From a virus, in IMG/VR virus record IMGVR_UViG_3300034375_003182, positions 1 to 64,000 of that record: a DNA stretch of 64,000 nucleotides, one strand, 5' to 3'. The translations under genes and the position numbers were made by a program. Positions 492-37,731 of this stretch are shown here, piece by piece. The stretch's first letter is position 1. Every line of letters starts with the position of its first letter. The notes under the pieces were generated by a model. The model was not told the DNA's origin, ran no database searches, and saw only the letters and a program-made list of their open reading frames with translations.

Positions 492-521
492 TCATTATTA
501 ACCATTACATTATATATCATT

Positions 522-584
522 ATGGACGAAGGCGAATGGCTAGACTGGATAATGGGAATTAGATTCCATAGTTATCCATACTAA
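522..584 (+). CDS. 20-aa micro-ORF MDEGEWLDWIMGIRFHSYPY, ending 1 nt before hammerhead 1
   Basis: ATG 522 after AT-rich leader, TAA 582-584; too short for the ORF track. Confidence 0.4.
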   Translation: MDEGEWLDWIMGIRFHSYPY

Positions 585-585
585 A

Positions 586-632
586 GATAATCTGATGAGC
601 TTTTATTAAGCGAAACACTATGTGTCATTATC
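586..632 (+). ncRNA. hammerhead ribozyme, type I (HHR1); predicted cleavage after C626 (GUC)
   Basis: Stem I GATAAT(586-591)/ATTATC(627-632); core CTGATGA 592-598; stem II GCTT/AAGC; GAAA 612-615; stem III CAC/GTG; GTC triplet 624-626. Confidence 0.93.
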
Positions 633-647
633 AAAATATATAGAAAG

Positions 648-693
648 GTCGTGATATTCGACGTATTCCTAAGCAAGAAGACAAAAGGCTTTT
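648..693 (+). ncRNA. small hairpin plus compact H-type pseudoknot
   Basis: GTCG/CGAC hairpin 648-662; GT-TTC/GAA-AC stem 663-682 with loop AAGC(671-674) complementary to GCTT(688-691) after an A-rich linker. Confidence 0.5.
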
Positions 694-710
694 TTAAAGA
701 TATTTAAGAT

Positions 711-823
711 TACAGGAGCTTAACATAATAGAGTGGTCGATCTCTTTATGACAGGCAGGTTTGATCACCTGTGCCGACAGAGGCAGTTGAACTACAAGGT
801 AGATTCAATCCTGTTGCTCCGTA
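711..823 (+). ncRNA. multi-stem structured RNA with perfect four-way junction and kissing loop; family not recognised
   Basis: P1 711-719/816-823; P2 724-733/742-750; P3 751-755/810-814; P4 756-760/767-771; P5 772-775/782-785; P6 786-795/799-809; loops GGTCGA(735-740) and TTGATC(761-766) are complementary. Confidence 0.75.
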
Positions 824-824
824 C

Positions 825-903
825 AAAATAGCCTCACTCGTAAGACGGAAGGGAAGGAAGGATACCGATGACTAAATGTCAACGCAGAGTCTGGGCTTGT
901 TTT
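825..903 (+). ncRNA. putative structured RNA with purine-rich GGAAGGGAAGGAAGGA segment
   Basis: AGCC(830-833)/GGCT(894-897) closing stem; TGAC/GTCA hairpin 869-881; CGG/CCG flank the purine run; fold ambiguous. Confidence 0.4.
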
Positions 904-910
904 TAACAAA

Positions 911-960
911 GATATACTGATGAGTCTTCAATAGACGAAACACTGTAAAGTGTCTATATC
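911..960 (+). ncRNA. hammerhead ribozyme, type I (HHR2); predicted cleavage after C954 (GUC)
   Basis: Stem I GATATA(911-916)/TATATC(955-960); CTGATGA 917-923; stem II GTCT/AGAC; GAAA 937-940; stem III CACT/AGTG with GTAA tetraloop; GTC 952-954. Confidence 0.95.
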
Positions 961-965
961 AACCA

Positions 966-1208
966 ATGTTATATATTATGTCTTATTATACTTACGGCAG
1001 ACTAAAGTTCTGCTATCAATTGTTAGCGTTTCTTACAGGTATTGTATCTATAATACTTGCAATATTCGCTATTGTTAATACTTCAATTTTGTACGGCTGC
1101 GCAACAGCTGTTACAATAATGCTAACTGCAGCGTTCATCAAAAGATCTGAGATGTATCAGACAAAGATGGACAACTGGAGTTACAAACACTATTTAGACA
1201 ATGAATAG
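966..1208 (+). CDS. small membrane protein (2 predicted TM helices)
   Basis: Two hydrophobic stretches; start may be ATG 978. Confidence 0.75.
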   Translation: MLYIMSYYTYGRLKFCYQLLAFLTGIVSIILAIFAIVNTSILYGCATAVTIMLTAAFIKRSEMYQTKMDNWSYKHYLDNE

Positions 1209-2211: not shown

Positions 2212-2850
2212 ATGACAAATGCGATGAACAGTGGTAGTATCCCCACTCTAAATGAGAATGATACACTATTGTACAGAATCTGGTCTACAAGTTCAGACAA
2301 AGTACAGCTAGAATTTATTGAAAATGTAAACAATCCATACAGAAGTGGTGGTGGTGCAGGTATAAACTTATTATATCTTGCTAACAAATCAGATGTAAGA
2401 TTTACTCGTAGAGGGTATCGTGCATGGTTGACTGGTACTGCTGAAGATGTTTACCCATTATTCAACATTGATCCTAACCATGTAGCTAATAGCTGGCAAC
2501 ATGATGCTGAAAGAGATAAGAATTATGTTGAACTAAACATTGTTAATCCAACTGTTGTTGGTGTAGCTAGTCCTGATGGCGAAGTTGTTCGTGCTAGAGT
2601 TCAGATTACTGAATCTACAGAGCCTAACGCTTGGCAAGCTGAAGATCCAGAGAACCGCTGCAAGCGCAAAGGTAAAGATGGTGAAGTTATGCTACACAAT
2701 GGAAAGAAAGTATTTATGAATGCACAAGTTGTATCATGTTATGGTGACACAGCTGCAGAGCAAACATTCTTGAAGACAGACACTGCTGTTGTACAAAACG
2801 CAGATGCCTTGGATAAGTTTGCAGATGTTGCAGGATTAAACCTAGGATAA
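2212..2850 (+). CDS. hypothetical protein
   Basis: 212-aa ORF with protein-like composition; function not recognised. Confidence 0.8.
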   Translation: MTNAMNSGSIPTLNENDTLLYRIWSTSSDKVQLEFIENVNNPYRSGGGAGINLLYLANKSDVRFTRRGYRAWLTGTAEDVYPLFNIDPNHVANSWQHDAERDKNYVELNIVNPTVVGVASPDGEVVRARVQITESTEPNAWQAEDPENRCKRKGKDGEVMLHNGKKVFMNAQVVSCYGDTAAEQTFLKTDTAVVQNADALDKFADVAGLNLG

Positions 2851-24453: not shown

Positions 24454-27400
24454 TTAACATTCAAATATTGTGCGCAACGTATCTAAGTGTGCTGTTAACG
24501 CAGGGTTAGTGCTATCAGGTATAACTAGTTTTATGTTTGGATTAGCGTCGAGTAAACTTTTTATTATAACTACTCTAGAATCTATTTCTTGTTGAGTAGA
24601 TTTGTTACCAGGTTCTAATCCTAGTGGTGGTAGCAAGAAGGTCTTACCTGGGTTCTTCTTTGCTAGCGTATCTATTTTACCTATACTGTCTGCAAATATA
24701 GCAAAATCTACCGGTTCTCCATACTGTGCTTTTGTAGGCGCAGATATTACATTAGCTTTAGCTGTAAATTTTTTTGCTATTGGCAAACCTTTTGCTTTGG
24801 CAACTCTAGCTAAACCATTTGCAAATGTTCCTGACTGATCCACTGGCACAATTGGTATGCCGGCTATATTAAATATGTCGCCTGTAACAGTTTGCTTGCC
24901 TCTACGCATCTCTTTTACATTTGGATCTAGAGTTTTATCAGTATGGTCTTTGCCATCTAATGTGATATTATTAGAGTTAACCATTGATATTATTCCCTCT
25001 GGCCCATACTCTTGTAAATACATTCCATTACCTAGTGTAGTTATTTGCTCCCATACCATAGTCCATGCGTTACCTATTTCCTTTCTCTTGCCTTCAGATA
25101 GTTTTTTAACTACAGTTTTATAGTTTGCTTTAGAGTCTTCAGTAAGTTTAAATAGTTTTTTAATTGTAGTTTTTTTGCCTGCTTTTATTAATCTTGCTTT
25201 CTGCTCTCTTGACAATGATGTATCAGGAATTTCTACAGATATAAACTCTTGAGGAGGCCTATTAGGAGAGGCTATTTGTAATGCTCTAGCCCCAACTATT
25301 CTAACCTTATTGCTTAATCCAGGGGGTATTTGTGTTTTTCCTGTGTCTGCCTCAAATCCATACGTAGCCTCATCAACCTTTTGTTTCATATATTGAGGAA
25401 CTACGAATGGATTTTTAAAATTGTTTTTATAGAACTGTAATCTAAAGTTATCTAGATTAACATTGCTTTGTTCTTTTGTTCCTGCTAAATACTTTTTTAA
25501 TATAGGATCAACTATGTCTATGTATTGCTGAGCCGGTATCAAATCCATAAAAGATACAGGGGATGTTTGCTGTCCTGATTGTAGTATTATAAACTTAACA
25601 ATATCTTTTGCAAGCTCTGGATCTTTCTCCATTAGTACTTGCATGTCTTCTATTAATGCATTACGCTCAAAAGATGTAAGACGTTTGTTAAACTTCTTTA
25701 TATTTTCCGTGGCATACTCAGGGTGTGTAGGATCATATGTCTGCAGTATTGGGAATAACTCATTTAGTATTAATGACTTCTTAGTATCCTTCTTCAATTG
25801 CATTACTCTTCTAGCTAAACTAGGACTGTCTTTAGTACCTTGGAATAATCTAGAAGCATCCTTAAATAACTCTTGCTGATTTTCTGTTCTAACTGTTTGT
25901 AGTATATAGTTTACTAGTGAGTTTTCTACAAGGCCTGCAAATCTTGCCTTATCATCATTTCCTATATCTCTACGATTTATAATATCTACTATTAAAGAGT
26001 CTAAAATAAATTCAGCATCTGCTTTACGTGTAGTAGCAAACAGACTATCAAACATTCTAGATGAGCTTTCTAAAGATTGCTCAAATGATTTTTGAAAACT
26101 TTCATCTAGATACTTATCTAAGTTTACAAATTTGTTTTCAGCTTTTAATGTATTTAACTTCATTACCTGCATTTTAGCTTCCATTCTATTTTTAGGAGCT
26201 AAACCAGATCTGTCACCGGTAACTGCTTCAGATAGCTCTTGCATTGGAATAGTTAAGCCGTCACGGATATCAATATACTTTTTCATTGCCTGCATTTGGA
26301 ATGTATGATAATCAATTAGGTCTTGCGGCGTAAACTGATCTAACAGTTTTGCTTTCTGCTCAGGAGCCATGCCATTAGACATCTCTTCAAACTGTCTTGC
26401 CTTTTCACCTAGAGCTAACATTCTTTCCATTGCTGGAATAGTATACTCAACTGTTGCATCAAAATCTGTAGGTAGCCCTGATAGTGCAGCAATGTCTTTA
26501 GCTTTATTTTCATGTTCTTTTTGAAGAGTCTTACTTATTTCACCTAAACCAGTAGCCGGGTTCTCTGTCTTTGTGGCAACCATCTCGAATAGAACAGGCT
26601 GTGTCATAAACTTAGATACAAACTCTAAAGGAACACCTGCTCTAAGCATAGATATGTACGTACTAGCAGTAGTCAAGTTACCGTTTATATCAAATACAAA
26701 TGGATCTTTGGATACATCTACAAAGGCATTGATAAACTCCCCTATAATTTCTGACACATAGTTTAATCCTAACGCATCCCTAGTTCCTCCCATTGGAATA
26801 GCTAGGCTCCCATCTTCTAGCTCTATCATTTCATATGCAGGCATGCCTATAGAAAAGTCTGGGTCTACTCTTAACGCTAGTCCGGCACGTTGTGCTTTTA
26901 TCTGGTGTGTATTAGCTACAGCTGCAACACCTAAGGCCTTCTTACCTGCTAAGAATCTGTTACCCATTTCCTGTATAAACTCAAACTTAAGAAGATCGCT
27001 AAATCTAGGGGATTGATTAGACTTTCCTTGCAGGCCTCTAATAACATTAGCCATGTCTTTTAGTCTCTGAGCTCCAACCGGTCTAACTAGTTGTTCATAG
27101 TTAGCCTCATTTAAAACAATTTTTCTAGAGTTAGTTAAGATTTGATTCTGAATAGCTTGTGTAGCATTCTGTCTTTCTAATGGTATGTCTTGTTTGTCGA
27201 CTGCATTAGCTATTTGTGAATCAATCTTTTCAAACTCTTTAGATATTTTATCTTTAACACTTTGAATAGATACATCCATGCCAGTGTCCGCATCTTGTAT
27301 CTTAGCCATCCTGCGCATCTCTAGTAGTCCTATCTCAAAGTCAATGCTATCTCTTTGTGATCTAGGGGCTTTCTTTCTCTTCTTATACAGATTATCAATC

Positions 27401-30400
27401 TGTTTGCTTACTTCTTGTACCTCTGGGTTCTGATAGTTTTGATAATCTAGTTGTTTTAGTTTAGCAAACTCTTTATTCATTGCTACAACTTTATCTACAA
27501 CAGATTCGCCCAATCCTACCTGCTGTGCTAGTGTAGCATACTTTCTAGGATTTAAAGTTCTAAGAGCTTGTACTCTTTGAGTGCTTGTAGAGTTTGCATT
27601 AGTTAGGAATGGTACAACATTTAGTTCATTCTTACTACGGTTATATGTATAGTTAGGTAGGAATATAGATAGTTTATCAATATCGTAGTCACTACCAGCT
27701 TTAACTACAATCTCTGAAGGTACCATGATAGCATCACCAGCCTCTTGCGGTAAGAAGCCTGCTATCTCAATTGCTTCTATAGAGTTCAATGCTGACGTTG
27801 GAATACGGAATCCATATACTTCAAGCATCTCTTTGCCTCCTATCTTTTCACCGTCTCTATATACACCATCTTCTCTTATAGTAACATTCTCTCCAATCAG
27901 CTCTTTAAAATAATGTGGTAACATTACCTGCATTGCTTTTACCTTACCATCTTCTTTTCTATAGAACTGTAGTGCAGCAACGTTCGCCCCATACTTATGT
28001 TTATCTTGGTATACAGTACGTTGTTCTACCTCTATACCTGCAGATGATACTTGTACCTTAGCGCCTCCAAATGTTTTATAGTTTACAATACGATTAGATA
28101 CTAAAGAGTATAGAAGGTTTTCTATCTTAGGCTTATTACCTAATACATCTAGCACTCTAGTTTCTCCTGATAAGAATTCTTCTAGACCATCTAAGTATGC
28201 ATCGGACATGTCTCGTCTTTCAGCCTCACCTCTTAATACTTCTGTAAGCTTTTCATATCCTTCCTCACTGATAGTAAACTCATTGCCTGCGTCTTCTATT
28301 CCAAACTCTCGTTTTAAAGACTCAAACTCCGCATCAACTAGTTCATTTTCTAATACCTGTAGTCTTTTATCTATAGCAGCAACTTCTTTATTTACAACCT
28401 TACCATTCTCATATGCATTAGAAGCAAGTAGTGCTCTTTGCTGACTACCTTTAGATACTTTTGTTTTTACTGGGTTCTGAGTTTCAACTTGTATACCCAT
28501 AAAGTCGTAGTACAACTCTGATACATTAGCCTGGTCTATTCCCGCATAGTCTCCAGACTCATCATAGAAGTCATTAGATGCATTATCTGCTCCTACAACT
28601 TTACCTACTTTAACACCACTTTCAAATACCGCTAGCCCCACCTGATTATCTATCATGTCGTCTAGCATCTTACCTAAATTACTACCCTTACCAATAGACT
28701 CTACTAGTTGTGGGTATATAGGTAATACAGATAGCTTGATAAATGCAGGTGAATATATACCTGTAGCGTATGTAGGCCCGTAGTACTGTGGTTTTAGTGG
28801 AGGGAATACTGCCATCTCTTGTGCAGATAGTGGTTGACCCTCTCTAACTTTTTTATATGCAGTTCTTTGATCTGGCGTAACATTACCTACACGCTCTAAG
28901 AATTCCATATACTCATCAATAGTCATGTAACCTTGCGCATCTGCCTCATCAAACTCTAAGTATGGTCTTAGTATTTCGTATACTTCTTCTGTCTTAGGGT
29001 CTAGTTGTACATTAGGTGTTTCTAATTTAATTTGTATAGCCGCAGGATCTGCTCCATATGCTTCAGCATACTCTAAAAATCTTTCATTAGTTATAGAAGC
29101 TTTTACATCTCTATAAGTTATGTGGCGCATCTTGCCGTCTGCAGTCTTACCATCTAATCTTTCATAGTTTTGGTTTAACCAGTCATTTACTTCTACACTG
29201 TTATCTGCAAAGAGCTTAGGCCCGTGTGGTCCTGATGTACGTTTAAAGAATGAGTCTGGCTTAAAGAATCCTAAGTCTCCTAGTACAGCTATAGTCTGCT
29301 CTATGTTACCTGCTTCATGCAGCATCACAAACTTCTTAAGCATGTTCATTACATCTCCCTCTAGCATAGAGTTGTGAGTACCACTCTTCTCAAAATCTAA
29401 ATTGTTCTTAGCAAGTATTTGATCTGATACCTCAACGTTATATTTTATATTGTTTTCAGGATCTAGCTTAATTAATTTATTTTCTATGCCTGCTCTAAAC
29501 AGTTCTTCAGCTCTAGTTTTTAGATGTGTTCTTAAGTCTGCTTCTATAGCCTCTTTATTCTCAGCCATATATGCATCTATGTTTCCTACTCCACCTACAT
29601 CTTGTAAATTTACTGAGGTTACATAGTCAAATACTCTTAATTGTCCCTTGTTTCTATTGTAACCATCTATAGAGTTACCATGATTACTAAGAGCTTTGTA
29701 TATTTCTTGTCTTAAATACTTTGACATTTGACCTACATACTCTGCTTCTGTCTTAGGCATAAGATCTATAAGTGCAGAGCCTTCTTCATTTCTTGCATTT
29801 AAGTCAAATACAAATTGTGATTTCTTTTCTGCTGGTCTTATCTGTGGTATTCTACCATCTAGCACAGCATTGAAGTCTGTTCTAAATCTTCTAGAAGGCG
29901 AGTTGTTTTCATATACAAACCCTCTACGGTTACCTTCTTTCTTGATACCATTCAATGTACCCATACCTATCTTCATGCCTCCCATACTTCCTTCTAGGAA
30001 TATAGAACCTTTAACAGACTCCATTAGTTCCCCGGTTTCAGGATCTATAAAGAACTCAGGTACACGACCATTGTTTAGTCTACCTACTATATTAGTTGTA
30101 AAGTTATTTGTTATTACACCGTAAGCAGTTTTACCATCAGCTGTTTGGAATTGTAGGTCCACAGACTTTTCAGTTCTATCAGCTTGTATATCTATAATCT
30201 TTTTAAATCTACTAAACGCTCCGCTTTCTCTGCTGAATATATCCTCTATACTAACGCCCTCTTCACCAAGCTCTACTAGTTTAGATAGTATACCTGTACC
30301 CTCTGATGGTACAAGCTCTGAAAGAATATTCATTCTTTGTTTAGTACTAAGAGACTCTGGGTTAGTAAACTCTACACCCATGTAGTTTAATATTGCAAGA

Positions 30401-33400
30401 GCATCAGCCTCATTAATGTTGGCTCCTTTACCTGCAAGCTTAGCAAGAGTCATTTGACGACCATTAACATTAAATGCTTTATTCGGCTCTATCACTACTC
30501 TACCAGTTTCTGGATCTACAGAGAAAGGTCCTTTACCTTCTTGTACTCTTTCTTTAAAGTTAGCTCTAAACTCTGACATGATAAGAGCAGACTCTCTATC
30601 TGCGTTAGCAGGCATAAATGTAACATGTCCATTCTCTGCGTCGTATATAGCTATAATATCTTCACTATTAAATTTATGGAACTGCTGTCTAAACTGTCTT
30701 TGTAGTTTAAACTCATTAGCAGTTAATGCAGATGCATCTTTAGTTACCTGCAGTCTGTTTATAAGAGTTGTAATAGGACCAGGTGTACCAGCTATGTCAG
30801 CGTACTCTGGGTGTTCTATAGCTAACTCTCTTAGTTTATTTATCTGATCTGCAAATGACTCAGTGCCTGCTAGTCTTTTAAGAACTAGATTGAAGAAAGG
30901 CTTGTAGTCTACTAGTCCTAAACCATAAGCACTATTTGTATTCTTCATACTTCTAGATGCAGGCAGTGTAGCAATTAATAGTTTTACAGCAGCTGGGGCA
31001 GTGTCCTTTAGATTAATTTCATTATTCTCATTTATATTGTAGCTATCTCTTAGCTTAGTAGACTCTGCATTTTCTTTTATCTCTAGTTGTACCTTAAACT
31101 GCTCTAGAAAGTCAAATACAGATTGTGTAACAGCTGTTGTATTGTGATAAACCATCGCAGCTAAGTTGTCTATATCCTGCTGTACTTCTGCGCTTGCGTT
31201 TTGTCTTATCTTATTTAGATTTGTAAAGTATGTACGATACGTAACATTCATTAACTCCTGCATCTTTTGTTTCTTTGCATCTGAGTTATTCTTAGATGAC
31301 AAGTCTAACAAGTCAGCCATACTGAATCCAGCCACCTGACCATTAAACAAGTGTCCAAACATTATACGAGTTAGTGATTCTGTAATAGCCTTGCTTTGAT
31401 CTACGCTTATCTTAGAACCATCTGCTAGTGTAATACGCTTATCCATGGACATTGCAAAGTCCGGGTTGTTTACAGGTTGTACAAATCTGTTATCTCTAAT
31501 ACTATCAAAGAACTGTTGTAATCTTTGTCTGTCCGCTGCTGGCCCTCTACCAAGCATTGTGTTAAAGAACTCTTTGATTGCATTAAAGAATCGTTTTATA
31601 AAATTACTATCCTTATTTGTTTTGTTGCCTATCTTATACTTATCTCCTACTAACATGTAAGATCTAAACTCTTCAGCAAGTCCCTCTTCTATATTTTCTG
31701 TTTGACCAGTAAGTCTTGTGAATGCATCTTCTATCTCCTGCTTAGTTTCAGGAGTAGTAAATCTACCTGATACTACGTGGTACGCCTCGTGATATACTGT
31801 ACCTTCTTGTGCTAGATCTGATAGTAATACTCTAGCAGCATTTAAAGTTCTACCATATGACTTACCATCAATAAGTCCGTCTATTACTTTGATTGGTATG
31901 TTAGGAAACTTACCTTCAAACCATGCTATCTCTGCAGGTATGTTAGCAGCTTTGTATTGTTCTGTAACTTCAGAAGCTAACAAGTCTTGTACTTCAGGTC
32001 CCATAGTAGGATCTTCCATCTGCCCACCGAACTTAGCTAATATGTCTACAGTAGACGGAGCTTGCTTTGATTCGGAGTCTTGTGCACTGTACGCTTCTAG
32101 TATAGCCTGATCCACACTAGTAGGATTAGTCTGTTTAGCAGCATCTACTTTTGGTGGAACTATAACATTCTTTTCTGAGATTTCAAATCCAGCGGTAAGG
32201 CCAGGGCTTACTTCTTTTATTTTAGATACAGCGCCCATAAATGATAAATCTTTCTGAGCATTATAGAAGTCAATAATCTTTACAACATTAGTGTCAACAT
32301 CATCACTCTTAACAATTATCTTGTTATCATTACCTTTACTTATCTCATAGGTTCCTATAAGTGAGCCATCCGCTTTGGTAACAGTAAGATTGTAGTCTTG
32401 TCCAACTACCATATCAGGAGTATCAAGACCGGTGTCTTCTTGTGCTCCTTCAGTAAGGTCTGTAGGTGCATCTGTTTTTGCTACAGGAGTAATAGGAGAC
32501 TGCTGAGCTACAGATTGACCATAGTCATACTTTAGGTATGTTCTCTTTATCTGTGTATTGTTTACATCTTTAGACATTGGAACTATACCTGTAGTAAGTG
32601 GAGGTGTGGTGCCATCCTCTCTTTGTAGGAACAGATAGTCATTGTAGCTATCATATGTAACACCAGGTTGTGTACCTTCAGGTGTTACAACTACAGATGT
32701 GTATGGCTTATTAGGCTTGTTTAAAAGGCTCTTATCTATGTTGTGATTCTTTGTAGCTAAGAACTCTTTTAACAATTGTACGTTTGCTTCGTTATATATA
32801 TCTACAGTTGTACTGATTGGATTCCCATCAGCGTCAGTGCTGTTAACTACATCAGCTGGGGCGTTTGGATCTAGACTTCTTATATCTATCTTATTACCGC
32901 CAAAGTTTAGGTATGTTACATCGCCTTCTCTTGCTGCATATATCTCAAATGACTTAGAGTTAGGACTGTCTGTAGCTCTTCTGTTAAATCCAATTAAACT
33001 ATTAAGGTATGGACGAACTTGAACATCAGTGCCTTCTATAATGTTGGCAGCAGCTGCAACATCTTTATCAGTTGAATGTAGCTTTGTACCATATGCTGCA
33101 AGTATTTGTACAGCAGTTTCTATTTCTGTATCAGTAAGTGTTCTAGTTTCTAGTGGTACCGGGTAGCCTTTGTGCGCCGCATATGGCATACCTCTAACTA
33201 CCTTATACTTATTACCACCTTCTTGTATAGTTGTAAACCCATCAGGACCTGTTACACCTGTGGCTATATTAACTTTTATTTTCTTAAGTTTCTTTTCATC
33301 ATTTGTTATTCTACCTAGAGCAGCACCCTTTACGTAGTTACCATCTGCGTCTTTCTGCATAACAGCGGTGCCTCTACCTTTACCTGAAATTCTAAACGAC

Positions 33401-36400
33401 ACAGGCCCTCTAGACAATAAAATCTTTTTTCTAGAAACTTTATATGCCTCTGTAAGAATATCAAACTGAGCTTTGTTGTCTTCGTTTACACCAGAAAACT
33501 TACTACCATCTTCATTGGGCAATAGTTGTTTTGTGTATATAAGTCCGCCATCCTCTGATCTAACATATTTTTTATTTACTTTGTCGTAAACTGCCAGTAC
33601 TATATCAGCGTTTTCCGGTGTAGCTTCTGAACCTGTAAAGAATTCGTCTTGGTTTAATGCATCTATGTCTTTCTGCTCTAAACCTGCACTTTCTACATTT
33701 CCTCTGTGGAATGCACGAAGTTCATACTTATCATTTCTTATATCAGTAGGTAGTATACTGTCAACAAACTTAAAGAATCTTCTTTGGTCTAAAGACATGT
33801 TCTCCTCACTGGTATCCTCAAACTTATTCTCTACGTCTATACCACCAGTCTTACCATATCCTATATCAAATGCATTAGGTTTAGTATGTGTCTTATCTTC
33901 ATTAGAAATAAAGTCAGCTGTTCTACTAGGACCATCTATTGTTACAGCCTCATTAGATTTAGGAGCTGGCGCAATTACACCCCTGCCCATCACCTGGTCG
34001 TATACTCTACCTTCTTCTATAACTATAGCTGAGAGCTTCTTCTGTAAGGCGTTATAGTTTGTACCAAATATAATACTACGCTGTACTTTCTCCATGCCTT
34101 TGTATTTATTATCTAAGGCATCAATCATAGCTGCTTCTCTTTGCTTAGCGGCACGCAATGTTGTTTCTAGTTTTTCTAGCTTCTCTTCTGTGGCAAAGAA
34201 CTCGTCCTCCAAGAACCTTTGATCTTCTCTTTTCTTATACAAGTCCTGGAACTCAGAATACATCTTTGGTCTATTTACCAATAGATCTGCAAACTCAGGA
34301 TATTGATTAGCTAGATCAGCTTGTTCATTAGAAAACTCTATAAACTTAGCAGCATCTAGAGGATTTGCTCCTGGATATGTTTCTTTGAATTTTGTATATG
34401 CATTGAAGAACCTGTCTTCCATAAGTATATCCTTCAGCACATCATAATAATTCTTTGCTTTTTGTGCACTATCTTCAAGAACAGCTATCTGATCCATCAA
34501 CTCTTCTAAAGCCTGCTCAGTTCTACTTATAGATCCTTGAGCATTTGTATCTAACTCAGTTCTAGTTGACAGCTTAACGCTACCATCAGGCTGTAAGGTG
34601 GTGCCTGATATTCCTAATTGTTGTAGGCCTTGTTCTTTTAGTTGTTTTTCTAACTCAAGTCTATCTTCCATAGGAAGCATAAATGCAGACTCAGTCTCTT
34701 TCAACATCTGATCTAGGAACTTAGCATTCTCTTTTATAAGCTCCGCGTCTTCTTGCAGTTTATCTCTCTTTTCACCAAGCTCTTGATACAGGGACTCTGC
34801 CAGCATCATATCACTCTCTAGTTGGTTTATACTTACAAACCTACCTTTTTCATCACGACGAGTTTCATATCTCTTAAGCTGGGCTCTCATAGCCTCAGCT
34901 CCATAGTTCAGTCTTTTATCTAGTTCCTCTATTTCTTTCTGTATCTCTACTAGTCTTGAGGTATCAGTTTTCTGTATTCTTTCTATAGCCTCTGCTACTT
35001 TACGTCTTTCTATTGCATTCTGATTTAGTATAGATACGCCAGGTCTATAATCACCATTTGACATAATATCATCCATTGATATTTTGTCATTAGCATCTTT
35101 TACATTATATAAGGTAGTCGGATCTAAGAATCTATAGAACTTTTCTTTACCGTCTTTGCCTAATATTCCAACTTCGTTCTCTCTGTTTTCATTATAGAAC
35201 CTTACTTTATCATTCTCTCTAACAGCTTGCTGAGTTGCTACTGCCTGGCGCTCAGCTTCTTCCTTATTATAGTCGTCCATGTAGTACTCAATCTGCTGGA
35301 ACGCCTCTCTCTGACCTTCAGGGTCAGTCAGATTATTATATAAATCAATAAACTGCTCACGTCTAGCTCTAAGCATTCTAAGATCTCTAAGTGTGGAAAG
35401 CATCTCTTCTTGAGATTCTGTTTTAGCAGCTTCGTTAGGATTATTATTTATAAACTGATTCATAATGTCAGCATCCTCACGAGTGTTCTGACCAAAACCA
35501 TTTAAAGCACTTTGTTGCAGGGCATCTCTTGCAACTTCTAACTCCGCTCTAGCTTCTGGTGATAGTTTGTCAGGACTACTGTCTTCTAATGTATCATCCT
35601 TTCTAAGCACATCCTCTATCTGTTGTAACTCCCTATTGACTGTAGGAGCCTTTTGACTATATGCAGCATCAAAATCTATAGTAGTACCAGCTAGCTCGTT
35701 TACTCTTTTTTGTAAATCAGCTTCTCTTAAATCTACATTGTCTGCTACAGCTACTGCATGTGTTAGCATGTCTCTTACCTCTTTTGAATACTGCGCAAAC
35801 TTTGGGTTATTGTTTATCTGATCATGGGCCTTCTTTATCTTCTTAGCCTTTTCTATTGCAGAATCTACTACTTTATTCTTTCTATCAGTAAGTTCTTGAT
35901 CAGTCATAGTAGAGGTATCGTAGCCCATATCTCTTGCAAACTGTTCATTACTAGATTCTCTAACAGCCTCAAAGTCTTCCATTACATGCTCAAACAATCC
36001 AGCCTGTATTCTAGAATCTACATAGCTATACATCTGATCATTCTCTGCATTTTTATATGCAAACATGTTTTGTTCTGCTAACGCCGCATCCATCTCCTGC
36101 TGTAAGTTTGTAGCTTTAGAGAAGTTCTCGAAGTTAGTCTGCATGTTCTTTATAGTAGCAGCCGCATTAGGGTTTTTATTTAGATAATCTACTAATCTAT
36201 CTGTACGTCTTCTCTTATCCTTCTGCTCTCTGATGGCACCTACGATACCCCCTTGTATTTCAAACTGTCTTTTACCAGTAGTTTGAGACTTAGCATATGT
36301 AGGTATACCCATGGCACCTAGCAAGAACCCTAAACCTATTTCTTTCTGTGTATCTTTAGCTCCGTACGTTTCTATGAATGTATCATCCAAAGATCTTATC

Positions 36401-37731
36401 AAGTCTAATGCTGCGTTAACACCATGAGGTCTATCCTTTTTAGAATAGTACTCAGCTGATGCGTGCCTACCTGCATTACTTAACCATGACTGTCCACCTT
36501 CTTCTACAAAACCTTCGTAGAATGGATTCTTAAGAGCGTGGTATGCAGCACTAACGTACTTACCTTTACCCATAGATCTATATGCTGCTCTATAAGGAGC
36601 TGCTACTTGCTTCCCTGCATCTCTTATGATCTTTCCAAAGCTTCCAGACATAGAACGTGCTCCAGGTCCAAATATTTTTGGGAACTGTAGCATGTTACCA
36701 CCACCTACAAGAGCGAGGTTAGTTGTAAATACAGAGTTAGCTGATTGTGTAGCTAGGTCTTTTATAAAAGCTAGCTCTTCATCTGTAGGCTGTCTTCCAT
36801 TCTTAGAAACAAAGTCCTCTACACCGTCTTTTACTACACTGTCTAAGTGATGTCTTGCTTCTACACCTGCCTCATACCCAGCACCTGTAACAAGCTGTCT
36901 CATTACCTTGGATGCACTCCTAGCTTTTTGCATAGCTGATAGCCCTCCACGAGTTAGCCTGGCAGCATCACCCATCTTATCAGTTGTCTTTGCAGTTTTA
37001 CCTGCAATTTTAAATATCTTTTTTGCTTTTGATAGCAAGCTTGCAGTTGCTACAGCTTGTGCAGGAGCTGCGCCACCAAAACTTGCAGCGGTAGTAGCTG
37101 TCAAAGCCGCCTCTGTTAGGATAGCACCTGCTATAAAAGATAGCCCATTAGTAAAATCATTTGCCCAGAAGTTCCCTGTACCTAAGCTTTTAAAAAACCC
37201 TAAGTCTCTTTCTTCTTTTGCTATATAGTTAGGTAAGTTGTAGTCTAAGGCTTCGTTTATATCATCAAGACCACGTGTAAACTCATTATCAAATACAGAC
37301 TTAAAAGAGTCTGCTGCATCAGCGTCTGTCATTGCATACTTACCCAAACCATGCAAACTTGTAAATATAGTTCCTATACCACCAACTGTAGCTGTAGCAG
37401 TTTTACCAGCTAGTTTACCTACAGCGTTACCCCACTCTGTAGCATTGCTTTGACCATACGCAGCTAGATCTGTAAGGTCATCATTCTCAATATTAATTGG
37501 GGCTCTTAGAAAGTCTGGAGTTTCATATAGCTTTGCAGCTCCCTCTGAAGCATCTTCAAATAACTTTTGATCTGCAGATGTTCTACGAGTAAGACCCATA
37601 AAGCTTTGACCTTCAACTGGATCTACGTCCAACGAAGTCTCAGCCTCTTTTGCTTTTGTTAACCCCTCTTCTAAACCTGTATCTTTATCTATCTCAGATT
37701 TAAACTCCATTAAATTTTTTAGTATACCCAT
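24454..37731 (-). CDS. giant virion-packaged two-barrel RNA polymerase, crAss-type, with zincin-like and macro-like domains
   Basis: 4425 aa; FRIPT..NS and GSDYDIDKL catalytic motif (cf. DFDID of phi14:2 gp66); HEAYH; C-terminal GDIF..VPVD..G..GLA..PTK..PPLG. Confidence 0.9.
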   Translation of the reverse strand: MGILKNLMEFKSEIDKDTGLEEGLTKAKEAETSLDVDPVEGQSFMGLTRRTSADQKLFEDASEGAAKLYETPDFLRAPINIENDDLTDLAAYGQSNATEWGNAVGKLAGKTATATVGGIGTIFTSLHGLGKYAMTDADAADSFKSVFDNEFTRGLDDINEALDYNLPNYIAKEERDLGFFKSLGTGNFWANDFTNGLSFIAGAILTEAALTATTAASFGGAAPAQAVATASLLSKAKKIFKIAGKTAKTTDKMGDAARLTRGGLSAMQKARSASKVMRQLVTGAGYEAGVEARHHLDSVVKDGVEDFVSKNGRQPTDEELAFIKDLATQSANSVFTTNLALVGGGNMLQFPKIFGPGARSMSGSFGKIIRDAGKQVAAPYRAAYRSMGKGKYVSAAYHALKNPFYEGFVEEGGQSWLSNAGRHASAEYYSKKDRPHGVNAALDLIRSLDDTFIETYGAKDTQKEIGLGFLLGAMGIPTYAKSQTTGKRQFEIQGGIVGAIREQKDKRRRTDRLVDYLNKNPNAAATIKNMQTNFENFSKATNLQQEMDAALAEQNMFAYKNAENDQMYSYVDSRIQAGLFEHVMEDFEAVRESSNEQFARDMGYDTSTMTDQELTDRKNKVVDSAIEKAKKIKKAHDQINNNPKFAQYSKEVRDMLTHAVAVADNVDLREADLQKRVNELAGTTIDFDAAYSQKAPTVNRELQQIEDVLRKDDTLEDSSPDKLSPEARAELEVARDALQQSALNGFGQNTREDADIMNQFINNNPNEAAKTESQEEMLSTLRDLRMLRARREQFIDLYNNLTDPEGQREAFQQIEYYMDDYNKEEAERQAVATQQAVRENDKVRFYNENRENEVGILGKDGKEKFYRFLDPTTLYNVKDANDKISMDDIMSNGDYRPGVSILNQNAIERRKVAEAIERIQKTDTSRLVEIQKEIEELDKRLNYGAEAMRAQLKRYETRRDEKGRFVSINQLESDMMLAESLYQELGEKRDKLQEDAELIKENAKFLDQMLKETESAFMLPMEDRLELEKQLKEQGLQQLGISGTTLQPDGSVKLSTRTELDTNAQGSISRTEQALEELMDQIAVLEDSAQKAKNYYDVLKDILMEDRFFNAYTKFKETYPGANPLDAAKFIEFSNEQADLANQYPEFADLLVNRPKMYSEFQDLYKKREDQRFLEDEFFATEEKLEKLETTLRAAKQREAAMIDALDNKYKGMEKVQRSIIFGTNYNALQKKLSAIVIEEGRVYDQVMGRGVIAPAPKSNEAVTIDGPSRTADFISNEDKTHTKPNAFDIGYGKTGGIDVENKFEDTSEENMSLDQRRFFKFVDSILPTDIRNDKYELRAFHRGNVESAGLEQKDIDALNQDEFFTGSEATPENADIVLAVYDKVNKKYVRSEDGGLIYTKQLLPNEDGSKFSGVNEDNKAQFDILTEAYKVSRKKILLSRGPVSFRISGKGRGTAVMQKDADGNYVKGAALGRITNDEKKLKKIKVNIATGVTGPDGFTTIQEGGNKYKVVRGMPYAAHKGYPVPLETRTLTDTEIETAVQILAAYGTKLHSTDKDVAAAANIIEGTDVQVRPYLNSLIGFNRRATDSPNSKSFEIYAAREGDVTYLNFGGNKIDIRSLDPNAPADVVNSTDADGNPISTTVDIYNEANVQLLKEFLATKNHNIDKSLLNKPNKPYTSVVVTPEGTQPGVTYDSYNDYLFLQREDGTTPPLTTGIVPMSKDVNNTQIKRTYLKYDYGQSVAQQSPITPVAKTDAPTDLTEGAQEDTGLDTPDMVVGQDYNLTVTKADGSLIGTYEISKGNDNKIIVKSDDVDTNVVKIIDFYNAQKDLSFMGAVSKIKEVSPGLTAGFEISEKNVIVPPKVDAAKQTNPTSVDQAILEAYSAQDSESKQAPSTVDILAKFGGQMEDPTMGPEVQDLLASEVTEQYKAANIPAEIAWFEGKFPNIPIKVIDGLIDGKSYGRTLNAARVLLSDLAQEGTVYHEAYHVVSGRFTTPETKQEIEDAFTRLTGQTENIEEGLAEEFRSYMLVGDKYKIGNKTNKDSNFIKRFFNAIKEFFNTMLGRGPAADRQRLQQFFDSIRDNRFVQPVNNPDFAMSMDKRITLADGSKISVDQSKAITESLTRIMFGHLFNGQVAGFSMADLLDLSSKNNSDAKKQKMQELMNVTYRTYFTNLNKIRQNASAEVQQDIDNLAAMVYHNTTAVTQSVFDFLEQFKVQLEIKENAESTKLRDSYNINENNEINLKDTAPAAVKLLIATLPASRSMKNTNSAYGLGLVDYKPFFNLVLKRLAGTESFADQINKLRELAIEHPEYADIAGTPGPITTLINRLQVTKDASALTANEFKLQRQFRQQFHKFNSEDIIAIYDAENGHVTFMPANADRESALIMSEFRANFKERVQEGKGPFSVDPETGRVVIEPNKAFNVNGRQMTLAKLAGKGANINEADALAILNYMGVEFTNPESLSTKQRMNILSELVPSEGTGILSKLVELGEEGVSIEDIFSRESGAFSRFKKIIDIQADRTEKSVDLQFQTADGKTAYGVITNNFTTNIVGRLNNGRVPEFFIDPETGELMESVKGSIFLEGSMGGMKIGMGTLNGIKKEGNRRGFVYENNSPSRRFRTDFNAVLDGRIPQIRPAEKKSQFVFDLNARNEEGSALIDLMPKTEAEYVGQMSKYLRQEIYKALSNHGNSIDGYNRNKGQLRVFDYVTSVNLQDVGGVGNIDAYMAENKEAIEADLRTHLKTRAEELFRAGIENKLIKLDPENNIKYNVEVSDQILAKNNLDFEKSGTHNSMLEGDVMNMLKKFVMLHEAGNIEQTIAVLGDLGFFKPDSFFKRTSGPHGPKLFADNSVEVNDWLNQNYERLDGKTADGKMRHITYRDVKASITNERFLEYAEAYGADPAAIQIKLETPNVQLDPKTEEVYEILRPYLEFDEADAQGYMTIDEYMEFLERVGNVTPDQRTAYKKVREGQPLSAQEMAVFPPLKPQYYGPTYATGIYSPAFIKLSVLPIYPQLVESIGKGSNLGKMLDDMIDNQVGLAVFESGVKVGKVVGADNASNDFYDESGDYAGIDQANVSELYYDFMGIQVETQNPVKTKVSKGSQQRALLASNAYENGKVVNKEVAAIDKRLQVLENELVDAEFESLKREFGIEDAGNEFTISEEGYEKLTEVLRGEAERRDMSDAYLDGLEEFLSGETRVLDVLGNKPKIENLLYSLVSNRIVNYKTFGGAKVQVSSAGIEVEQRTVYQDKHKYGANVAALQFYRKEDGKVKAMQVMLPHYFKELIGENVTIREDGVYRDGEKIGGKEMLEVYGFRIPTSALNSIEAIEIAGFLPQEAGDAIMVPSEIVVKAGSDYDIDKLSIFLPNYTYNRSKNELNVVPFLTNANSTSTQRVQALRTLNPRKYATLAQQVGLGESVVDKVVAMNKEFAKLKQLDYQNYQNPEVQEVSKQIDNLYKKRKKAPRSQRDSIDFEIGLLEMRRMAKIQDADTGMDVSIQSVKDKISKEFEKIDSQIANAVDKQDIPLERQNATQAIQNQILTNSRKIVLNEANYEQLVRPVGAQRLKDMANVIRGLQGKSNQSPRFSDLLKFEFIQEMGNRFLAGKKALGVAAVANTHQIKAQRAGLALRVDPDFSIGMPAYEMIELEDGSLAIPMGGTRDALGLNYVSEIIGEFINAFVDVSKDPFVFDINGNLTTASTYISMLRAGVPLEFVSKFMTQPVLFEMVATKTENPATGLGEISKTLQKEHENKAKDIAALSGLPTDFDATVEYTIPAMERMLALGEKARQFEEMSNGMAPEQKAKLLDQFTPQDLIDYHTFQMQAMKKYIDIRDGLTIPMQELSEAVTGDRSGLAPKNRMEAKMQVMKLNTLKAENKFVNLDKYLDESFQKSFEQSLESSSRMFDSLFATTRKADAEFILDSLIVDIINRRDIGNDDKARFAGLVENSLVNYILQTVRTENQQELFKDASRLFQGTKDSPSLARRVMQLKKDTKKSLILNELFPILQTYDPTHPEYATENIKKFNKRLTSFERNALIEDMQVLMEKDPELAKDIVKFIILQSGQQTSPVSFMDLIPAQQYIDIVDPILKKYLAGTKEQSNVNLDNFRLQFYKNNFKNPFVVPQYMKQKVDEATYGFEADTGKTQIPPGLSNKVRIVGARALQIASPNRPPQEFISVEIPDTSLSREQKARLIKAGKKTTIKKLFKLTEDSKANYKTVVKKLSEGKRKEIGNAWTMVWEQITTLGNGMYLQEYGPEGIISMVNSNNITLDGKDHTDKTLDPNVKEMRRGKQTVTGDIFNIAGIPIVPVDQSGTFANGLARVAKAKGLPIAKKFTAKANVISAPTKAQYGEPVDFAIFADSIGKIDTLAKKNPGKTFLLPPLGLEPGNKSTQQEIDSRVVIIKSLLDANPNIKLVIPDSTNPALTAHLDTLRTIFEC

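Follow-up and report, generated by a model that had tools for sequence, protein, structure and literature searches.

Paired type I hammerhead motifs around a mosaic non-coding segment in an uncultured aquatic phage

Results

The phage and the locus

The window, meaning the whole 64,000-nucleotide stretch of DNA analysed here, corresponds to positions 1–64,000 of an 82,755-bp IMG/VR record that is rated 96% complete and belongs to an uncultured aquatic phage. The DNA runs containing the stretch are labelled freshwater, marine, or aquatic, and several may be the source of the record; in 16 DNA runs, 94% or more of the sampled words were present. The best named matches of the DNA polymerase were crAss-like phages, at 27–30% identity. 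Crassvirales are recognised by their capsid, portal, terminase, and virion RNA polymerase genes; here the candidate structural proteins had no PHROG or Pfam match, and a 508-aa protein found nothing by tblastn among 50,697 phage records. The crAss-like affiliation implied in the original prediction is thus weakly indicated. A large tail-region protein carries a T9SS sorting domain at its end, a hint of a Bacteroidota host; the other large proteins gave no match. Among several very large ORFs (two others have 1,632 and 1,663 aa), a single one of 4,425 aa occupies positions 24454–37731 on the minus strand and might contain a crAss- or N4-type virion RNA polymerase.

The features of the locus are collected in Table 1. 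The membrane-protein gene that closes the region has no PHROG family and is followed by two tiny lipoprotein-like ORFs, one of 46 aa with an LTSC box (1201–1341) and one of 62 aa with an LGSC box (1338–1526). Behind these, a further stretch without ORFs extends over about 420 nt (1527–1950); it gave no Rfam match and is also a mosaic, in that the segments 1508–1557, 1567–1634, 1646–1774, 1774–1873, and 1863–1960 have their matches in different relatives and at different positions. At 1493–1557, RNA-library contigs of X17 accumulate. A blastn search with positions 400–1300 against the 50,697 phage records returned no match.

Table 1. Features of the locus, in window coordinates
Feature	Position	Strand	Description
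Upstream box (ATTACATTATATA...)	504–521	+	conserved; abuts the first start codon in the slot
Micro-ORF (MDEGEWLDWIMGIRFHSYPY)	522–584	+	20 codons; in the hypervariable slot
HHR1	586–632	+	type I hammerhead, predicted cut after C626 (626/627); stem I GATAAT/ATTATC, core CTGATGA, stem II GCTT/AAGC, GAA, stem III ACAC/GTGT; lineage-specific extra copy
Motif A	643–691	+	conserved two-hairpin RNA element, 49 nt
Module M	694–830	+	strongly folding multibranch RNA, closing stem ~711–823
Module B	828–905	+	leader segment common to L012 and L020
HHR2	911–960	+	type I hammerhead, predicted cut after C954 (954/955); stem I GATATA/TATATC, core CTGATGA, stem II GTCT/AGAC, stem III ACACT/AGTGT; copy conserved before the 80-aa gene
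Membrane-protein gene	978–1208	+	76 aa from ATG 978, or 80 aa from ATG 966

Two hammerhead motifs on one strand

A type I hammerhead requires a CUGANGA...GAA core, an A15.1–U16.1 pair, and a residue other than G (H17) at the cut site. HHR1 and HHR2 both satisfy these requirements with CTGATGA, GAA, the A...T pair closing stem III, and C626 or C954, respectively. Stems I, II, and III measure 6/4/4 bp in HHR1 and 6/4/5 bp in HHR2, stem I is open-ended in both, and both lie on the strand of all neighbouring genes. A type I descriptor applied to both strands of the window picked out HHR1 and HHR2 and nothing else. Applied to 300 dinucleotide shuffles, its relaxed form averaged 0.027 matches (at least one in 7/300, at least two in 1/300), and the strict form (stems 6/4/4) matched in 0/300. 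Across the 82,755-bp record the core pattern occurred twice, at HHR1 and HHR2, with no occurrence on the reverse strand or in the reversed control. Chance matches are excluded. The two complete type I hammerheads originally predicted on one strand, with cuts at 626 and 954, are therefore borne out by the sequence and the shuffles; they are, as judged from their sequence, genuine hammerhead motifs, for which self-cleavage is predicted.

The Rfam covariance search that had been proposed as a check returned no match to either copy at gathering scores and yielded sub-threshold alignments only. In E-value mode, the HHR2 region aligned with Hammerhead_3 at 27 bits (E 0.004, 884–946), below threshold, and with RAGATH-1-hammerhead at 23.4 bits (881–959), and HHR1 reached 18 bits (E 1.4); the best scores, 27 and 18 bits, are to be set against a cut-off of 48.5. 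A sibling copy in another contig (L029:2233–2282) exceeds the Hammerhead_1 cut-off (36.2 bits vs 34), which together with the sub-threshold window copies places this hammerhead family just under the Rfam cut-offs. Our own family model (R2) found nothing above 13 bits in the window apart from HHR1 and HHR2, both of which were in its training set; this model and the motif A model used below (R1) were each calibrated on 0.2 Mb, and their E-values are rough.

The best sub-threshold alignment reads HHR2 as a type III hammerhead cutting after position 891. We rejected this reading: its stem III is mismatched, the upstream AGAGTC it uses is part of module B and is present without a hammerhead in L012 and L020, and the arm is missing from L004 and L005, while the type I helices are kept in all.

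The minimum free energy (MFE) fold of HHR2 is the hammerhead fold, whereas that of HHR1 is a competing structure at −5 kcal/mol with z ~0. HHR1 is weak in other respects as well, as its stem III, the shortest in the hammerhead family, has 4 bp and a 3-nt loop, and its stems are A/U-rich. Natural fast hammerheads have a tertiary contact between stem I and loop II, or a pseudoknot, which allows rapid cleavage at cellular Mg2+; in the flanks inspected we saw no complement to loop II and found no such contact. Loop II itself is strongly conserved, reading TCAAT in 13 of 23 aligned family copies.

A family of related hammerheads in phage contigs

A descriptor scan of all loci identified at least 32 distinct copies of this hammerhead family in IMG/VR phage contigs. 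When we searched for the exact HHR2 core and stem II, leaving stems I and III unconstrained, 21 IMG/VR stretches were retrieved. In 25 of the 26 rows examined, the 6 nt before the core are matched by their exact reverse complement 13–60 nt beyond GAAAC, with GTC or GTA in front of it; a contig end interrupts the remaining row, which makes the count 25/25 evaluable. Six different stem I sequences occur among these matches, all of them complementary. In an alignment of 23 family copies, 10 of 13 pairs vary on both sides, and the covariation score is 0.666 vs 0.167 in shuffles (0/500 as high), although these statistics are inflated because the descriptor that picked the copies demands pairing, and the value of 99.7% paired follows from that selection.

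The family has a characteristic genomic position. An ORF of at least 40 aa begins 8–60 nt past the cut in 40 of 44 unique contexts. Of the four contexts counted without one, the first is the window-type HHR1. In L011 the contig stops 67 nt past the cut, and one L029 copy is a counting artefact, since an ATG ORF starts at +31; the fourth is L030. The L030 copy (2644–2699, minus strand) is the only other family hammerhead without an ORF after the cut, and a G+C-rich, possibly structured sequence follows it. Arrays of five to eight hammerheads on one strand occur in L027, L029, L032, and L038. The best explanation for the usual job of the family is the cutting of multi-gene early transcripts about 10–40 nt ahead of a start codon.

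HHR2 is conserved, and HHR1 is confined to one lineage

Relatives of the locus (four contigs) were located through the neighbouring 99-aa and 212-aa proteins. The first, L003 (identical with L013, one contig), matches the window at 441/441 positions over 560–1000 and has both hammerheads; HHR1 was found only there and in the window. L004, L005, and L006 carry the HHR2 orthologue alone, directly before the same membrane-protein gene. Its helices differ by paired changes: T-A is replaced by C-G in stem III of L004 and L006, and GTCT/AGAC by GCTT/AAGC in stem II of L006. The closest relative of HHR1 is the L006 hammerhead, with 81% identity over 53 nt.

The upstream box ATTACATTATATA recurs in L004, L005, and L006 and also stands before motif A in L012 and L016. 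A consensus scan for sigma-70 promoters and terminators found nothing at this box or inside the insert; the box is possibly a phage promoter. The slot between the box and HHR2 is hypervariable among the relatives. It holds a 4-codon ORF in L004, an ORF of about 69 aa in L005, one of about 52–60 aa followed by motif A and then another non-coding module in L006, and an 83-aa ORF in L039; in the window it holds the 20-codon ORF, HHR1, and the 328-nt insert. The same 80-aa gene is thus preceded by a hammerhead alone (L004, L005), by motif A and module B with no hammerhead (L012, L020), or by motif A and a hammerhead together (L006, window). Cleavage at HHR2 would leave an mRNA that starts with this gene and has a leader of 23 nt (ATG 978) or 11 nt (ATG 966); the former is most likely, since L012 and L020 have a counterpart of ATG 978 but none of ATG 966.

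These observations bear on whether both copies work. HHR2 could be the only active ribozyme, with HHR1 a decaying or poorly folding duplicate; the insert would then be the long 5' leader of the operon, extending from the transcription start to 954 and removed whole, and there would be no defined 328-nt RNA. The restriction of HHR1 to one lineage, its place among the exceptions to the rule of an ORF after the cut (44 contexts), its short stem III, and an MFE fold that is not a hammerhead and is no better than shuffles all fit this proposal. However, all core positions and 14 helix pairs of HHR1 are intact, where a neutral relic should show at least one defect, and HHR1 scores 54.3 bits with the family model, though that model was trained on it. 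We regard activity of HHR2 alone as a possible but unlikely account, and favour two functional copies.

The 328-nt insert is a mosaic of separately conserved modules

The segment between the two cuts (627–954) is 328 nt long, as claimed, and the statement that it contains no credible ORF also stands, the longest frames having 32–34 aa with GTG or TTG starts. No tRNA or tmRNA was found in it, and the Rfam 15 covariance models gave no match in 627–880 at E up to 10. A BLAST comparison of positions 560–1000 with all fetched loci divided the insert into motif A, module M, and module B, each of which is also found at other loci with no hammerheads around it. Related phages carry the modules one at a time, as 5' leaders or as intergenic elements.

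The insert had been described as largely filled by folded domains. Taken whole it is not distinguished from shuffled sequence (z −0.97; 18/100 shuffles as good), but the description does apply to positions 700–830, with an MFE of −37.1 kcal/mol, z −3.24, and 0/200 shuffles as good, and to motif A, whose structure is supported by covariation.

The original prediction had also proposed a cassette and had held that loss of the insert from relatives keeping the ribozymes would speak against it. This is in part what we found, as relatives that keep HHR2 either lack the insert (L004, L005) or have a different one and no HHR1 (L006). A hammerhead followed within 18–48 nt by motif A was seen only in the window-type contig among 30 IMG/VR pattern matches, and a search of JGI metagenome contigs gave none, with a pattern verified on the window. 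The layout of hammerhead, insert, and hammerhead, which was to be sought in related contigs, is therefore specific to the window-type lineage. That the parts of the insert are conserved separately argues that the modules rather than the cassette are under selection.

Module M recurs in L033 and L039 with 96% identity over 137 nt, standing there after the stop of an 83-aa ORF and about 300 nt before a hammerhead; its MFE fold is also the centroid. An RNA-library contig of X18 spans 756–889 with no differences. A search for module M homologues with a 15-base pattern retrieved 57 stretches, most of them chance matches in coding sequence; a few non-coding RNAs resemble module M only in the hairpin CAGGN-UUGAUC-ACCUG. 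This hairpin lies at 752–772 of the window and at L019:1940–1960, and recurs in L289, L302, L305, and L310, and in L280, L311, and L312. The non-coding RNAs of these phage contigs that contain it are otherwise unrelated, and in L289 a long-form motif A directly follows such an RNA.

Module B shares 81–84% identity over about 80 nt with L012 and L020; in both, motif A comes immediately ahead of it, the same 80-aa gene follows, and there is no hammerhead. Its fold is ordinary (z +0.57). Another shared non-coding module (AACAAGGTTTGTG...GAGACTTGTTAT), with an 8-bp closing stem, is present at L006:4740–4860 and L039:6958–7050; in these two relatives it sits between motif A or module M and the hammerhead, and it is missing from the window.

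The insert could in principle encode a small protein, for example from the 27-aa ATG frame at 748–831 within module M, with the hammerheads flanking a gene. This frame stays open in L039. Yet no ribosome-binding context was seen, the three in-frame differences that separate the window, L039, and L033 are, as judged by eye, all amino acid replacements, and module M folds far better than shuffles, as an RNA would. Motif A is not a peptide gene either, because its copies differ in length by non-multiples of three and its covarying positions would cause radical codon changes. We consider a coding insert scarcely credible, and treat the segment as non-coding.

Motif A is a widespread element without an Rfam family

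Motif A consists, in order, of GAAAGG, the P1 hairpin, GUAUUCCU, and the P2 hairpin with the loop xGAAGACAAAC. Its 22-mer core is found exactly in 14 IMG/VR contigs. A degenerate pattern retrieved 83 stretches in 69 unique contexts; in 52 of these the P2 hairpin forms and is preceded by GAAAGG and the P1 hairpin, and these are taken as phage motif A contexts, while the remaining 17 look like chance matches in coding sequence. RNAalifold predicted the two hairpins. Among 40 copies, pre-filtered for pairing, two P1 pairs and four P2 pairs vary on both sides, with a covariation score of 0.377 vs 0.129 in shuffles (0/500 as high). P1 can take up structured insertions as long as about 60 nt, which have a conserved internal loop of their own, and the sequence blocks of the motif are very strongly conserved. 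Rfam has no family for the window copy or the other copies tested, and among the 120 genome_contigs matches listed there was no real copy in a cellular genome. Motif A thus appears to be widespread in phages and uncatalogued.

The window copy departs from the consensus at two otherwise invariant positions and scores 70.6 bits with model R1, compared with 82–85 bits for the closest consensus short copies. These two changes, which are specific to the window, create a 10-bp pairing of 641–650 with 687–696 (three G-U pairs), which joins the 5' GAAAGG region to the U-run behind P2. The MFE fold of the window copy is dominated by this pairing, though it is no better than shuffles (z −0.73).

In 24 of the 52 contexts an ORF of at least 40 aa begins 13–52 nt past motif A, and in 12 the motif lies no more than 9 nt past the stop of such an ORF. 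Homologues of the first lipoprotein-like ORF (1201–1341) stand directly behind motif A in L010 and L021, and L039 is a further contig noted for these ORFs. In one case it directly follows a tRNA-Leu. We considered whether it habitually neighbours tRNAs, as several adjacent sequences look like tRNA 3' halves, and dropped the idea when ARAGORN confirmed an adjacent tRNA in one of nine loci scanned (L107). In L043, L080, L083, and L063, a sequence resembling a tRNA acceptor/T-arm minihelix and ending in CCA stands just before motif A; ARAGORN called no tRNA at these four.

Such positions, together with the strong conservation of the sequence blocks, would also suit a DNA-level hairpin promoter for a phage RNA polymerase, in which case transcription would start inside the insert and HHR1 would lie on an upstream transcript. 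Phage N4 has a giant virion RNA polymerase that uses hairpin promoters, and the 4,425-aa protein encoded by the present phage is in keeping with this idea. Against it, structured P1 inserts with a conserved internal loop are typical of RNAs, not promoters, several phages have a separate conserved promoter-like box a short and constant distance ahead of motif A, and an RNA-library contig of a relative spans 640–691, with DNA carry-over possible. A promoter role is very unlikely in our estimation, and we continue to regard motif A as an RNA element.

Two known ribozyme classes were compared with motif A, which shares with them the character of a small, conserved, phage-associated RNA adjoining hammerheads. 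The hatchet ribozyme is described as having helices P1–P4 with a conserved P1–P2 linker (CAA) and conserved L2 nucleotides (PMC6561176, PMC4604424); motif A has two hairpins only and lacks that layout, the linker, and the L2 nucleotides. Twister is described as needing P1, P2, P4, and two pseudoknots (PMC5408937), for which 49 nt leave no room. Both were rejected. Motif A starts right after ORF stops and once after a tRNA, as expected of a 5'-processing element. It might belong to a new cis-acting class of RNA-processing element, possibly a new small ribozyme, that appears functionally interchangeable with hammerheads ahead of phage genes, and the hammerhead pair might be a natural device for releasing a stand-alone phage non-coding RNA built of mobile modules; we hold this combined reading to be rather doubtful. 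As conserved and structured RNAs that are uncatalogued, motif A and module M are candidates for new RNA families in aquatic phages.

Discussion

A model for processing at the locus

We propose that HHR1 and HHR2 are probably both functional, HHR2 trimming the mRNA of the 80-aa gene and HHR1 additionally freeing a 328-nt leader RNA. Transcription would begin at a point upstream of 522, and both ribozymes would cut during or after it. The HHR2 cut would sever the downstream mRNA, with a 5'-OH and a 23-nt leader, from the upstream sequence. HHR1 may represent a second copy added in this lineage behind the 20-codon micro-ORF, with the consequence that the non-coding leader would be released as a separate 328-nt RNA. 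That RNA would have a 5'-OH and a 2',3'-cyclic phosphate and would contain motif A, module M, module B, and the body of HHR2. It would amount to a set of modules freed from coding messages rather than to a conserved cassette. The idea that the phage excises a non-coding RNA without host nucleases is thus supported in so far as the hammerheads are complete and covarying; release is conditional on both of them cutting, and a conserved cassette is not upheld. HHR1 is the weak point of the proposal, as it has a competing fold and is young.

Ends of this kind raise the question of whether the excised RNA closes into a stable circle in the way that retrozymes and viroid-like RNAs do. RtcB-type ligases take a 5'-OH and a 2',3'-cyclic phosphate as their substrate, which such ends would suit. 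The stem I sequences of the two copies differ, however, so that the joined ends (GAUAUA against AUUAUC) would form 4/6 pairs, with the two next to the cut mismatched; this makes ligation catalysed by the hammerhead unlikely. In the account given by Perreault et al., neither circles nor spliced products were detected for clustered prophage hammerheads (PMC3088659). The four RNA-library runs are assemblies that give no ends, strand, or level, and they carry no weight for or against cleavage or circles; no back-going joint is listed in them, and most of 300–640 is without cover. A circle appears highly improbable.

Comparison with known systems

In their overall design the two copies resemble Rfam Hammerhead_1 (RF00163) and RAGATH-1-hammerhead (RF03152), with which they share the type I topology, an open stem I of 5–6 bp, and the same core. 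They differ in that both fall below the gathering cut-offs. HHR2 aligns end to end with RF03152, but the extra upstream hairpin of the RF03152 consensus is unmatched.

Tandem hammerheads a few hundred nucleotides apart that bracket a non-coding RNA are also described for retrozymes and viroid-like RNAs (PMC5680766, PMC6765202). Those elements are repeats of one ribozyme, so that their ends rebuild a hammerhead, and they belong to eukaryotic RNA or retro-elements. The window pair, in contrast, has differing stems I (4/6 pairs when joined), lies in the operon of a dsDNA phage, and gives no indication of a circle.

The window pair also resembles the clusters reported by Perreault et al. in 2011. 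Their description has multiple hammerheads flanking prophage genes and cutting transcripts of about 2 kb in vitro, with one case in E. coli (PMC3088659). The shared traits are several hammerheads on one strand of a multi-gene phage transcript that is thought to be cut into shorter RNAs, and the arrays in L027, L029, L032, and L038 are of the same type. Since clustered hammerheads in phage transcripts have been described since 2011 (PMC3088659), the paired layout as such is not new. The role of bacterial and phage self-cleaving ribozymes is still called largely elusive (PMC6765202), and the present locus offers a compact natural comparison, in which one gene is preceded by a bare hammerhead, by a hammerhead-free structured leader, or by both. 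The ribozymes of the 2011 clusters, as described, flank genes or short gene blocks, as does the present family at large (40 of 44 contexts), whereas the window pair brackets 328 nt with conserved modules and no credible ORF. If the 328-nt RNA accumulates, phage hammerheads would release non-coding RNAs as well as messages.
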